Below the pieces are notes generated by a model, which did no database searches, had not been told where the DNA came from, and saw nothing but the letters and a program-made list of their open reading frames with translations. Below are positions 28,720 to 33,061 of a stretch of 64,000 bases of DNA, piece by piece. Numbering within the stretch: position 1 is the first letter of the stretch; the number at the start of each line of letters is the position of its first letter. The translations under genes were made by a program, and so were the position numbers. Source of the DNA: Sphingomonadales bacterium (GTDB taxonomy: Bacteria > Pseudomonadota > Alphaproteobacteria > Sphingomonadales > Sphingomonadaceae); assembly GCA_038228305.1 (NCBI GenBank), contig JBBRPI010000017.1, forward strand, positions 532-64,531, in the 5' to 3' direction.

Positions 28720-28998
28720 TTAATCCTCACCGAATTTGTCGAGAACAAGGCCCCGCAGCTTGGTAATGGCGGCTTCGGCGTCGACGCCTGTCGCTGAAAT
28801 CTCGATTGAATCGCCACAGGCTGCGGCCAGCATCATCAGCCCCATGATCGATGTTCCTGTCACGCTGCCGCCGTCATGGCTGACAGTAACTTCGGCATCG
28901 AACGTGCTGGCCATGGTGACAAATTTTGCGCTGGCGCGCGCATGCAGGCCGCGTTTGTTGGTGATCGGAACGCTAATCGGGCCAACCGCGGCGCTCAA
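28720..28998 (-). CDS. ptsH: HPr/NPr family phosphocarrier
   Basis: ITNKRGLHARASAKFV (active His) and GTSIMGLMML (regulatory Ser). Confidence 0.95.
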   Translation of the reverse strand: MSAAVGPISVPITNKRGLHARASAKFVTMASTFDAEVTVSHDGGSVTGTSIMGLMMLAAACGDSIEISATGVDAEAAITKLRGLVLDKFGED

Positions 28999-29396
28999 GC
29001 CGCTTCGCCCAACATGCGAGAAGCGACGGCGATATATTTTCGCCCGGCCCCCTGCGCGGCCTCAACTGCTGCTGTAACGTTCATGGTCTTGCGCACGCTG
29101 GCCAGCTTGATCAGCATCGGCAGATTGACCCCGGCGATGACCTCGGTGTTCGGACCCATCAGCGAGATGGCCAAATTCGACGGAGTGCCGCCAAACATGT
29201 CAGTCAGCATGATTACGCCCTGGCCGGCATCGCAATCAGTGATCGCCGCCGCAATGTCGTTGCGCCGCACCTCCATGTCGTCGTCTGCTCCGATGCAAAT
29301 CGCGCGCACGCGATCCTGTGGCCCCACGACGTGTTCCATCGCGGCCATGAATTCGGCGGCCAGGCGGCCATGGGTGACGAGAACCAATCCGATCAT
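28995..29396 (-). CDS. manX: PTS EIIA, mannose family
   Basis: MIGLVLVTHG, LTDMFGGTPSN, VIAGVNLPML. Confidence 0.93.
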   Translation of the reverse strand: MIGLVLVTHGRLAAEFMAAMEHVVGPQDRVRAICIGADDDMEVRRNDIAAAITDCDAGQGVIMLTDMFGGTPSNLAISLMGPNTEVIAGVNLPMLIKLASVRKTMNVTAAVEAAQGAGRKYIAVASRMLGEAA

Positions 29397-30769
29397 GCAG
29401 GGCCTGCCTCACCCGATGTTGGGGGTGCTGTCAATATGGCGGCGTCATGACCGTGGCCTGCGACATCGCGGTGCACCAGCAATGGCCCTTGGCCAGCGGC
29501 GGTTAGGCGCGCCTGCAATTCGCGTGCGACGGCGACGCTGCGATGGCGACCGCCAGTACAACCGATAGCGATGGTGAGGTATGCCTTGCCTTCGCGGCCA
29601 TAGCCCGGGATCAGTGTCAAAAGTAGATCGGCGATGCGATCGACGGCCGGGGCATAGGCGGGATCGGCGCGGACAAATTCGGCAACATCGGGATGTTCGC
29701 CGGTCAATGGCCGCAGCGCCGGTTCCCAATGCGGATTGGCCAGGAACCGCATGTCAAACACCAGATCGGCGTCACGCGGCAGGCCATAGGCAAAACCGAA
29801 CGACTGAAGAGTGACATTCAGTGCGCCGTAACTGTCACGGCCCAATTGTTCAGCGATACGGCGGCGCAGATCGGCCGCGGACAGATCTGTCGTATCAATC
29901 ACCATGTCGGCCCAGCGCCTGAGCGGTGCTGTCAGCGCGCGTTCACGGCCAATGCCATCGGCGGCAGGGCGATCGGCAGCGAGCGGATGACGGCGGCGCG
30001 TTTCGGAAAAACGCTGGACCAGGCGATCGTCGCTGCAATCAAGATACAGCAGCCGGATGTCGATACCTTCGGCGCGCAGGGTGCGCAGACGTTCGACCAA
30101 AGCTTCTGCATCAAATTCGCGAGTGCGGGTGTCGATGCCGAATGCGAGCGGCCGGGGCGGGCCATCGCCGCCTTCGGCGGAATTGAGCAGGGTGTCGACA
30201 AGGCCAAGCGGCAAATTATCGACCGCCTCATAATCCAAGTCTTCCAGCGCCTTCAGCGCCGTCGATTTCCCGGCGCCCGACATGCCGGTGACGATCAACA
30301 TTGGCGGAACGCCGGGCAACGGGGCGGGTGAAATAGCAGCCATGATGCGGCCTTTTACGGCCAGACCGTGTTGGCGCAAAGCCCGTTCGACTTTCAGCGC
30401 GGCTGATTCGCCAAAGGCGGACAGGGCAATCATCGGGATGGCGATGCCGCGCCAGCTTTGCGTCGTGGTTTCGGGAAGGCGTTCGGGGTCGCCCGCGAGA
30501 TCGATAGCGAGCGCGACTGGTGATGACAGGTTTGATTCGGCGCATAATCCTACGCCGCGCACCTCGATCAGCCCGGCTATGGCAGCCGGCGCAGTGGCAG
30601 TGAGGATGCCGTTGTTGGCGGAAAGCACGGTGCGATCATCGGCGACCAGTTGCCAGCCCCGATCGATCAGCCGTAACGCCAGATCGGATTTGCCCGCTCC
30701 CGATGGCCCCAGCAGCAGCACTGCTCGTCCATCCAGAGCCACGGCAGTCGCATGGATTGTCGGTGTCAT
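29393..30769 (-). CDS. rapZ: In-frame fusion of the short HPr kinase/phosphorylase and the RNase adapter RapZ
   Basis: N-terminal IHATAV...GPSGAGKSDLAL...VADD...GLIEVRGVG (HprK); then IVTGMSGAGKS...AVDNLP...SFGF..GLP.DAD.VFD.RFL.NP...IGCTGGRHRSV (RapZ); no stop between the two. Confidence 0.9.
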   Translation of the reverse strand: MTPTIHATAVALDGRAVLLLGPSGAGKSDLALRLIDRGWQLVADDRTVLSANNGILTATAPAAIAGLIEVRGVGLCAESNLSSPVALAIDLAGDPERLPETTTQSWRGIAIPMIALSAFGESAALKVERALRQHGLAVKGRIMAAISPAPLPGVPPMLIVTGMSGAGKSTALKALEDLDYEAVDNLPLGLVDTLLNSAEGGDGPPRPLAFGIDTRTREFDAEALVERLRTLRAEGIDIRLLYLDCSDDRLVQRFSETRRRHPLAADRPAADGIGRERALTAPLRRWADMVIDTTDLSAADLRRRIAEQLGRDSYGALNVTLQSFGFAYGLPRDADLVFDMRFLANPHWEPALRPLTGEHPDVAEFVRADPAYAPAVDRIADLLLTLIPGYGREGKAYLTIAIGCTGGRHRSVAVARELQARLTAAGQGPLLVHRDVAGHGHDAAILTAPPTSGEAGPA

Positions 30770-32355
30770 CCCGCCGGCAGTTCCACGGTGAACATCGCGC
30801 CCTGGGTGCCGTCGCGTTCGCCCACCCGGATTGTGCCGCCGTGCGCAGTGACGATCGCCCCGGCAATGGAAAGCCCAAGCCCGGAATGGCGGCCGAAATC
30901 TTCGGATTCCGGCCGCTGCGAATAGAAACGCTTGAAGACATCTCCGCGATTTTCGGCAGGCACGCCCGGCCCCTGATCCTCAACCTGCAGCCGAACGCGA
31001 CGCGCGCCGGTCTCCGCCGAAACGATCACTGTGCCGGGGTTGGGCGAAAAGGAAATGGCATTATCGATCAGATTGCGCAGCACCTGGGCCAGCCGTGCCG
31101 GATCACCCCGCACCCGCGCTGCACCCGCCGCCGGCGGGGAATAGGCAATGGACATGCCAGGTGGCATTCCCGCCACCTGATAGGCGGCAACCAGCCCTGC
31201 CGCCAAAGCCCCCGCATCAACCGGTTCAAAGCGCGCACGCGACAGTTCGGCATCCAATCGGCTGGCATCGGAAATATCGCTGATCAACCGGTCCAATCGC
31301 GCCACATCATCGCGGATCACTGCCATCAGCCGGGCCCGCAAATCGGGCACTTGCACCGCGTCCAGCGTGTCAACCGCGCTGCGCAATGACGCCAGCGGGT
31401 TTTTCAATTCATGGGCGACATCGGCGGCAAAGGCTTCGGTCGCATCAATCTGCAGCCGCAGCGCCAGCGACATGTCGGACACGGCTCGCGCCAGCGCGCC
31501 AATTTCGTCGCGCCTGTCCGGCAGCCGCGGAACGATGACTTCACGGGATCGGCCCAGTCGAACGCGGTGGGCGGCGATGGCCAGCATTCTGAGCGGCCTG
31601 ACGATGGTGTTGGCGAGGTAAAACGACAGCGACAGCGTAATGCCGGTTACAGCGAGCAGCAGCCAAAATGATGTCAGCCTTTCGGCACGCAAGATCGCCG
31701 TCAGATCGGCGGCATTGTCGGCCAGATGGACGGTACCGCCATGGGCCAGCGGCGCTGCTGCGGTCAGGATGAAATCGCCATCCACAGCGCGGCGAAGCCG
31801 GGTAACGGGCGCTTTGGCTTGGCTTGCTTCGGCAATTTCGGGCCAATTCCGGGCGCGATCAGGTGTGATTTCGGTATAGGGGGTTATCGGGCGAAACCGC
31901 GCGACCTGTTCAAGTGCGCGATCAATGAAGCGGGCTGACAGCCGCCGCCAGCTTTGCCGTGCAGGGTTTTCGATGGTGAATCGGCGCGTGCCGGGGCTGG
32001 CCCAATTGTCCGCCGCCATCGTGCCATCGCCCGCATACAGGCGAACCCGGGTGCCGCGTGAAGTTGTGAAATCGCGCAGGCGATCCGCGGCGGCTGGCAG
32101 CGCATCGGCAAAGGCAGCGATGGTGGCCGCCTGGTTGGCAAGACCTGCACTGCGTTCATCGAGCAATCGCGACCGCACGGTATCGAGATACAGCAGCATG
32201 ATCGCCAGCACGATGACGGCGACAATATTGACCGCAAAAATCCGGGCACGCAGCGAACCAAAGCCCAGGCCGCGCCGCCATTCCTGAACTTCTGACGATT
32301 CAGGGGCCGATTCCAGGCCAGGCCTATTCCTCGTTGAAACGGTATCCGACGCCAT
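30766..32355 (-). CDS. chvG: Sensor histidine kinase ChvG
   Basis: Two TM helices, HAMP (RRDEIGALA), [27 protein letters not shown]; follows chvI. Start codon uncertain. Confidence 0.92.
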
Positions 32356-33061
32356 ACAGCGTCTCTATCGCCTTGAAATCATGGTCGACGGCGCGAAATT
32401 TCTTGCGCAGCCGCTTGATGTGCGAATCAATGGTACGATCATCGACATAAACATCATCCTGATACGCTGCATCCATCAATTGGTCGCGTGATTTCACAAA
32501 ACCCGGCCGGGCAGCCAGCGTTTCCAATATCATGAATTCCGTAACAGTCAGCGCGACATCGCCGCGCCGGCCTTCGCCGGCATCCCATATCACGCGGTGG
32601 CGGGCAGGATCCATGGTCAACCGGCCGCGGATAATGGGTTCGGCGGCGGGGGTATCGGGGGTTTCTTCCGGTGGCTTCCGGCGATTTGCGGCGCGGCGCA
32701 GCACGGCGCGAATGCGCTCAATCAGCAGCCGCTGGCTGAACGGCTTTCCGATATAATCATCGGCGCCCATCGCCAGGCCCAGTGCTTCATCAATCTCGGT
32801 GTCTTTTGAGGTGAGAAAGATCACCGGCACTTCGGATTTCTCGCGCAGGCGGCGCAGCACCTCCATGCCATCCATGCGCGGCATTTTAATGTCGAGCACG
32901 GCCAGGTCAGGCGGGTTTTCGGTCAGCGCCTTTAAGGCGGTATCGCCGTCGGAATACAGCCTGACCGTATAACCTTCGGCCTGAAGCGCGATCGACACCG
33001 AAGTAAGGATGTTGCGATCATCATCGACCAGAGCGATTACAGGGGCGGCGGTGTCTGGCAT
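32324..33061 (-). CDS. chvI: Response regulator ChvI
   Basis: [39 protein letters not shown]; divergent from pckA. Confidence 0.96.

Follow-up and report, generated by a model that had tools for sequence, protein, structure and literature searches.

RapZ (YvcJ) is nearly always encoded among regulatory genes of the phosphotransferase system (PTS), in the order ptsN-rapZ-npr in gamma-proteobacteria and yvcJ...crh in Bacillus. To our knowledge, the only role of RapZ that is understood, that of an adaptor for decay of the small RNA (sRNA) GlmZ, is confined to enterobacteria, and we are aware of no role established for RapZ in Alphaproteobacteria and of no account of how the truncated HprK found there is regulated. 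[quoted passage not shown] One review describes the alpha-proteobacterial hprK as lying between chvI/chvG, which precede it, and manX-ptsO, which follow, and mentions rapZ only in the gamma-type rpoN operon; the words 'fusion' and 'fused' were not found in it (PMC13104625). Here we describe hprK and rapZ joined into one gene in a 64,000-nt stretch of DNA from a Sphingomonadales bacterium (GenBank assembly GCA_038228305.1, contig JBBRPI010000017.1, positions 532 to 64,531), hereafter the window. The product is best explained as a bifunctional polypeptide, long maintained, in which a short HPr(Ser) kinase/phosphorylase (HprK) and a complete RapZ/YvcJ-type protein are connected through a disordered linker, and we give this explanation as a whole, including its origin, expression and coupling, a probability of about 0.8. 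No paper with an HprK-RapZ fusion as the subject of its title or abstract was found in the searched literature, which leaves out many subscription papers, and the fusion is apparently undescribed in papers.

The ORF listing and the translation give a single minus-strand open reading frame (ORF) at 29393..30769, which encodes 458 aa and includes the TGA stop at 29393-29395. The protein is laid out as a complete short HprK (residues 1-138), a linker (residues 139-156) and a complete RapZ (residues 157 to ~440), and the linker region reads HGLAVKGRIMAAISPAPLPGVPP over residues 134-156. An initial annotation, made from the sequence alone, had described a 458-aa ORF with two P-loops, a linker and an internal ATG at 30343, and the ORF listing, translation and Pfam all agree with that description. 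A six-frame search of the window genome returned the fused ORF as the sole match to HprK or RapZ, and a second copy of hprK or rapZ was not found. The split locus chvI-chvG-hprK-rapZ-manX-ptsO of Alphaproteobacteria (in which rapZ is also called yhbJ), as carried by most Sphingomonadaceae, has the same gene order, domains and stop/start coupling, and its HprK C-terminus and rapZ start align with the window codon for codon. The split relatives have either an in-frame stop three codons before the rapZ ATG or a GTGA/ATGA overlap of stop and start with rapZ in another frame, whereas the window has Lys139 and encodes one polypeptide.

Relatives were searched in all six frames. The window belongs to the GTDB genus Sandarakinorhabdus/Polymorphobacter, of which S. 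limnophila DSM 17366 and also Sandarakinorhabdus sp. DWP1-3-1 are members. Of 24 genomes sampled from this genus, 21 had an unbroken junction, with 61-77% identity over essentially the full length. The exceptions were G020 (81% complete), which gave no match, G021, which gave a fragment only, and G006, which has rapZ alone. In a family sample of 300 genomes from 112 genera, stop-free full-length matches outside the genus occurred in three genera only: g104 (Glacieibacterium) in 3/3 genomes, g20 in 2/3 (one of them a contig-truncated match) and g94 in 2/3. Elsewhere in this sample hprK and rapZ are separate, either in one frame that is interrupted by a stop or two, or in different frames, and in the different-frame relatives the rapZ start lies near the hprK stop or overlaps it. 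Moreover, a protein search gave at least 120 best-hit clusters (at 90% identity) of 360-527 aa, nearly all of those listed with PF07475, PF03668 and PF22740, and where these carried a name it was only 'RNase adapter RapZ', 'UPF0042' or 'hypothetical protein'. This distribution argues that the fusion is genuine and long maintained, and speaks against both an error in the sequence and an accident of recent date. An error of sequencing or assembly, or a very recent strain-specific stop loss, has only the prior expectation of separate genes to recommend it; because the junction recurs in 21 members of the genus, in three other genera and in over 100 clusters from independent projects, we regard such an explanation as extremely improbable and rejected it on this conservation. 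The genuine fusion that the initial annotation had offered as one of two possibilities is thus conserved across the genus and three neighbouring genera. A stop near 30350-30390 in all close relatives had been named there as evidence to the contrary; such a stop was found in sister genera only, at the codon homologous to 30353-30355.

The exceptional genome G006 is a metagenome-assembled genome (MAG, 93% complete). Its stand-alone rapZ (L128, G006:C4:31439-35338) encodes 308 aa from a GTG start and begins MIQTMPLSLLVVSG; genes for EIIA-Man and HPr come next, unrelated YciI-like and LrgA/B-like genes come before, and there is no adjacent hprK or chvGI. An HprK match was not found anywhere in this MAG. 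Deletion, rearrangement and misassembly are all possible causes of this arrangement.

The origin of the fusion can be read from the codons at the junction, which were numbered in the HprK frame from the conserved SAPLKVE motif (window S122-E128). The Lys139 codon AAA (30353..30355, minus strand) is anchored codon 18 and occupies the ancestral position of the hprK stop. In the sister clade (Sandaracinobacter, Sandaracinobacteroides and relatives) codon 18 is TAA or TAG in 5/8 rows, and the three in-frame rows among them have the rapZ ATG at codon 22, which corresponds to Met143 of the window; the fused genes have AAA, GAA, GAG, GAT, AAC, TCA or GCA at codon 18. Because the sister stop aligns with Lys139 and the sister rapZ start with Met143, the codon comparison shows a stop-to-sense change at codon 139 to be the origin of the fusion. 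The ancestor had the hprK stop and the rapZ start in one frame, three codons apart. The simplest path is one substitution, TAA to AAA or GAA, after which the former N-terminal extension of RapZ, rich in Pro, Ala and Ser and variable in length, turned into the linker.

A maximum-likelihood tree was built from 100 distinct HprK+RapZ sequences with the junction excluded. The genus of the window forms a 27-row clade in which all rows are fused (99 by the Shimodaira-Hasegawa-like approximate likelihood ratio test, SH-aLRT), and this clade is nested in a 39-row clade (support 89) of 33 fused and six split rows. The fused state changes at least three times on the tree, and two changes are forced by well-supported branches alone. 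In all six split rows the old stop position is still occupied by GAA or GAG, both sense codons. A new TGA, 2-4 codons further on, terminates hprK in these rows; it precedes or overlaps the rapZ ATG or GTG, and rapZ lies in another frame. Split and fused sisters are a 1-nt indel apart, for example GAGACT-GC versus GAGACTTGA. We read the 39-row clade as one fusion followed by two re-splits, and three independent fusions may have taken place there instead.

The old start of rapZ has been retained within the fused gene. Met143 (ATG at 30341..30343, minus strand, codon 22) aligns with the rapZ ATG of the split sisters and is a possible site of internal initiation, and codon comparison marks Met157 (ATG at 30299..30301, minus strand), just before RapZ strand 1, as a second possible internal start. 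The old start codon is ATG or GTG in 33/33 distinct fused genes of the clade, a raw count in which kinship is ignored. Outside the S. limnophila subclade 20/20 genes have ATG (3) or GTG (17) at codon 22, or in one gene at codon 21, and within that subclade 13/13 genes have ATG (7) or GTG (6) at 2-3 codons before RapZ strand 1. Where the old-start positions encode Val, the codon is GTG in 23/23 cases, compared with 50% GTG in the RapZ bodies of the same genes, and the rest of the linker around these positions is unconserved. Among the 14 distinct genes in the subclade of the window, 12 have ATG as the Met157 codon and the remaining two have ATC and TTG; in the other fused subclades this codon is never ATG, and is GTG in two genes. 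The 36-nt RNA around the start folds less stably than the gene mean in 22/24 genes (mean z +0.83), to which the composition of the linker could contribute. Shine-Dalgarno strength was not used as evidence for an internal start, the energies of the duplexes with the anti-Shine-Dalgarno sequence being weak and scattered. With moderate confidence, we consider that Met143 or Met157 still serves as a start for free RapZ. The gene would then give both a 49-kDa fusion and a free RapZ of ~34 kDa. The second possibility in the initial annotation, a recent loss of the stop with the rapZ start kept, therefore holds in part: the stop was lost and the start codon at 30343 is conserved, but the event is old, as its presence across the genus and three neighbouring genera at 61-77% identity indicates.

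Fusions of this kind also occur outside the family. In a class-wide sample of 400 genomes, in which matches were verified on DNA, unbroken full-length matches were present in family f41 (3/3 genomes, from two genera) and in one genome of family f70. A protein search with the f41 form listed at least 120 more fused clusters of 437-498 aa; the members of this type include Kiloniellales MAGs, Fodinicurvata sediminis, F. fenggangensis, F. halophila, Tistlia consotensis and Algihabitans albus, and the named proteins are called only 'RNase adapter RapZ' or the longer JGI form of that name. The Kiloniellales, Fodinicurvata, Tistlia and Algihabitans fusions are like that of the window in having PF07475, PF03668 and PF22740 and the same invariant catalytic residues. 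They differ from it in belonging to another family, with 43-52% identity and split lineages between, and in having a linker without a start codon: ATG, GTG and TTG are all absent from the 40 codons before the RapZ core in these genes. Hence RapZ is an obligate C-terminal fusion in the f41-type clade. The f70 gene (G396, L121) has kept an internal ATG after GAAGAGG, a strong Shine-Dalgarno-like sequence (AAAGAAGAGGTC), and the two other sampled f70 genomes are unfused. Judged from these sequences, the window lineage, the f41-type clade and the f70 gene represent at least three independent origins.

The HprK half (residues 1-138, 30356..30769, minus strand) was recognized by Pfam, PDB sequence matches, AlphaFold2 (AF2) and Foldseek. 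Pfam Hpr_kinase_C (PF07475) matches residues 4-75 with 61.5 bits against a gathering cut-off of 33.3, and the PDB sequence matches were 1jb1 and 3tqf. Foldseek aligned this half with HprK/P of L. casei and Coxiella (1kkl, 2qmh, 3tqf) at a target template modelling (TM) score of 0.64-0.75 and a root mean square deviation (rmsd) of 2.3-3.3 over ~140 residues. The Walker A motif GPSGAGKS occupies residues 21-28 (30686-30709), and there are also an Asp44-Asp45 pair and the signature loop E69-V-R71-G-V-G74 (ExRGxG). In an alignment of 100 fused proteins from both clades, G26, K27, S28, D44, D45, R71 and G74 are invariant; their catalytic roles we take to be those of the counterparts in the L. casei structures. 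The window protein thus shares the catalytic fold, Walker A, Asp pair and ExRGxG with Firmicute HprK/P (L. casei 1JB1/1KKL; S. xylosus 1KO7), but it lacks the Firmicute N-terminal domain of ~130 aa, as do all short alphaproteobacterial forms, and unlike the Firmicute enzymes it has a RapZ module at its C-terminus.

The RapZ half comprises an N-terminal P-loop NTPase domain (residues 157-311, 29837..30301, minus strand; RapZ-like_N PF03668, 141.7 bits) and a C-terminal, phosphofructokinase (PFK)-like domain of the sugar-phosphate-binding type (residues 318-436, 29462..29818, minus strand; PF22740, 145.7 bits), and both score above the Pfam gathering cut-offs. Residues 3-277 of E. coli RapZ align to the window protein with E=4e-53, and Foldseek matched the N-terminal domain to 9m1v (TM 0.89) and the C-terminal domain to 5o5s (TM 0.94, rmsd 1.0). 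By sequence and predicted fold this half belongs to the RapZ/YvcJ (UPF0042, COG1660) structural family. Its Walker A motif is GMSGAGKS (residues 162-169, 30263-30286). S164-G167 and C404-T-G-G-x-H-R-S411 are invariant across the 100 fused proteins, the latter being C404-T-G-G-R-H-R-S411 in the window, and the CTGGxHRS motif is part of the metabolite pocket in E. coli RapZ. The Walker-A lysine of RapZ (K168 in the window) is variable among the fused homologues, in which the consensus is GLSGAGRS with Arg, unlike the invariant K27 of the HprK Walker A; the RapZ P-loop of many members may bind nucleotide rather than hydrolyse it.

Compared with E. coli RapZ (PDB 5O5O, 8B0J), the window protein has the same two-domain fold, Walker A and CTGG[KR]HRS, and E. 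coli rapZ is likewise located among regulatory PTS genes. The differences are the HprK domain in front and the features on which the RNA role depends. E. coli RapZ requires K270, K281, R282 and K283 for sRNA binding (PMC7073468). In the alignment to E. coli RapZ none of these four residues is kept (0/4), their counterparts being Q427 and the non-basic tail DVAGHGH, and GlmY and GlmZ were not found in the 99.98%-complete genome with RF00083 and RF00128, for which the E. coli control was positive. Since both the sRNA-binding residues and the two sRNAs are absent, the label 'RNase adaptor' is not supported for the window protein on this comparison, and the E. coli-type role was rejected as the default reading. 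The RapZ half could still be supposed to be an E. coli-like GlcN6P-sensing sRNA adaptor for RNase E that has come under PTS control, with its complete fold and the invariant CTGGxHRS in favour; in view of the lost RNA-binding residues and the missing sRNAs we regard this as improbable. The link to RNA-adapter function and GlcN6P that the initial annotation had drawn is thus only half plausible, the CTGGxHRS motif being invariant and the sRNA part lacking support. E. coli RapZ that is free of GlcN6P also associates with a sensor kinase, QseE, whose autophosphorylation it stimulates, and N-terminally tagged RapZ remains active (PMC7073468). The window gene directly follows the gene of a sensor kinase, an arrangement reminiscent of RapZ and QseE, and purely by analogy a scaffold or sensor role of the RapZ half beside ChvG is conceivable.

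The two halves are joined by a Pro/Ala-rich interdomain linker (residues 139-156, 30302..30355, minus strand), which in the fused relatives measures 8-35 aa and is hypervariable in sequence. An AF2 model from an alignment of 100 natural fusions had a mean predicted local distance difference test (pLDDT) score of 89.7, with ~95 for HprK and ~93 for RapZ; pLDDT fell below 50 only at residues 141-148, which are predicted to be disordered, and in the C-terminal tail. The model describes two well-folded domains on a flexible tether. The same model was considered as a source of an HprK-RapZ interface, and none can be claimed from it, the linker being disordered and the predicted TM score (pTM) being 0.57.

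Several observations weigh against a long-maintained bifunctional protein. Two sublineages within the fused clade have split again through 1-nt indels, and these re-splits together with the rapZ of G006 that stands alone show that the fused state is not indispensable. At that pTM the model of the monomer predicts no fixed contact surface between HprK and RapZ, and the hexamer expected of HprK has no obvious match to the tetramer of RapZ. Moreover, the Shine-Dalgarno-like pairing that precedes the internal start is weak and differs among the genes (-0.1 to -6.9 kcal/mol). Alternatively, the fusion could be near-neutral and the cell could still run two activities, with RapZ made from Met143 or Met157, the read-through product acting as an HprK with a tolerated or clipped tail, and no new coupling beyond translational coupling. 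The internal ATG or GTG in every fused gene of the clade, the reduced RNA structure around it, the hypervariable length and sequence of the linker, the toggling between fused and split states by single-base indels, the G006 gene and the AF2 model without an interface are all consistent with such a history. It is at odds with the Kiloniellales/Fodinicurvata-type linker, which has no canonical start, so that RapZ functions fused there, and with the persistence of the fusion across a radiation of a genus and more in which both catalytic sets are invariant; the three or more independent origins also suggest more than chance tolerance. We therefore consider a near-neutral fusion possible but unlikely, and favour the tethered, bifunctional HprK-RapZ.

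The operon around the fusion reads chvI-chvG-hprK::rapZ-EIIA(Man)-HPr, all on the minus strand and tightly overlapped. Pfam identified a chvI-type OmpR-family response regulator (32324..33061; Response_reg, Trans_reg_C), a chvG-type sensor histidine kinase (30766..32355; HisKA, HATPase_c, HAMP, Sensor_TM1), an EIIA(Man)-type PTS protein (manX/ptsM; 28995..29396; EIIA-man) and HPr/NPr (28720..28998; PTS-HPr) with the His motif GLHARAS and the Ser motif GTSIMG, in agreement with the flanking genes named in the initial annotation. The chvG stop and the start of the fusion share ATGA at 30766-30769, the stop of the fusion and the EIIA start share ATGA at 29393-29396, and the HPr start lies 4 nt within the 3' end of the EIIA gene. 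These overlapping stop/start pairs indicate that the operon block is arranged for translational coupling, and the 4-nt overlaps would coordinate the synthesis of both the fusion and free RapZ with that of ChvG, EIIA(Man) and HPr.

A cognate HPr with a regulatory Ser motif is thus encoded nearby, and the HPr/NPr of the operon is the expected substrate of the HprK domain, which would phosphorylate its Ser. In the branch of the regulatory PTS that is attached to ChvG-ChvI, the RapZ half would be a bound module for sensing or scaffolding, and would not be an E. coli-type GlmZ/RNase E adaptor. From the fused sequences we infer that HprK and RapZ are functionally coupled. The fusion has been tolerated and has evolved more than once, which argues that the two proteins already act as a complex when they are encoded separately. 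Tentatively, this may be extended to HprK and RapZ as one signalling machine throughout Alphaproteobacteria, perhaps wherever rapZ/yvcJ adjoins genes of the HPr family, with RapZ as the metabolite-sensing or scaffolding module of the truncated HprK; at this breadth the proposal is doubtful. If it were true, Ser phosphorylation of HPr/NPr would be tied to envelope precursor status and to ChvG-ChvI, by analogy with RapZ-QseE of E. coli, and the repeated fusions would be the genomic trace of an HprK-RapZ complex and would point to a RapZ function outside Enterobacteriaceae.

The HprK-RapZ fusion joins two known families; it is Rosetta-stone evidence for a partnership and not a new kind of system. 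One uninterrupted frame is present in many diverged genomes, both halves are constrained and the genes are separate elsewhere, as is characteristic of a conserved gene fusion. It offers biochemists and structural biologists a natural single-chain complex, which is carried by cultured type strains (S. limnophila DSM 17366, Fodinicurvata spp.), and natural pairs of split and fused genes one base apart. It is also a worked example of a fusion born from translationally coupled genes by a stop-to-sense change and reversed by a 1-nt indel. Because the database name of these proteins is only 'RapZ', PTS surveys that rely on annotation cannot see that these organisms have an HprK.

Some further features were noted around the locus. 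PF27840.1 appears in the precomputed Pfam lists of nearly all fused proteins of the window's clade; it was not reported by the Pfam scan of the window protein and is rarely listed in the Kiloniellales-type clade. When the first start is taken mechanically, chvG and chvI share 32 nt (32324-32355), and the real chvG start may be further downstream. The sole PTS_EIIA_2 (PtsN-type) gene of the genome lies on another contig (G000:C13:71320-71697), and thus the regulatory PTS is divided over two or more loci, the usual state in Alphaproteobacteria.

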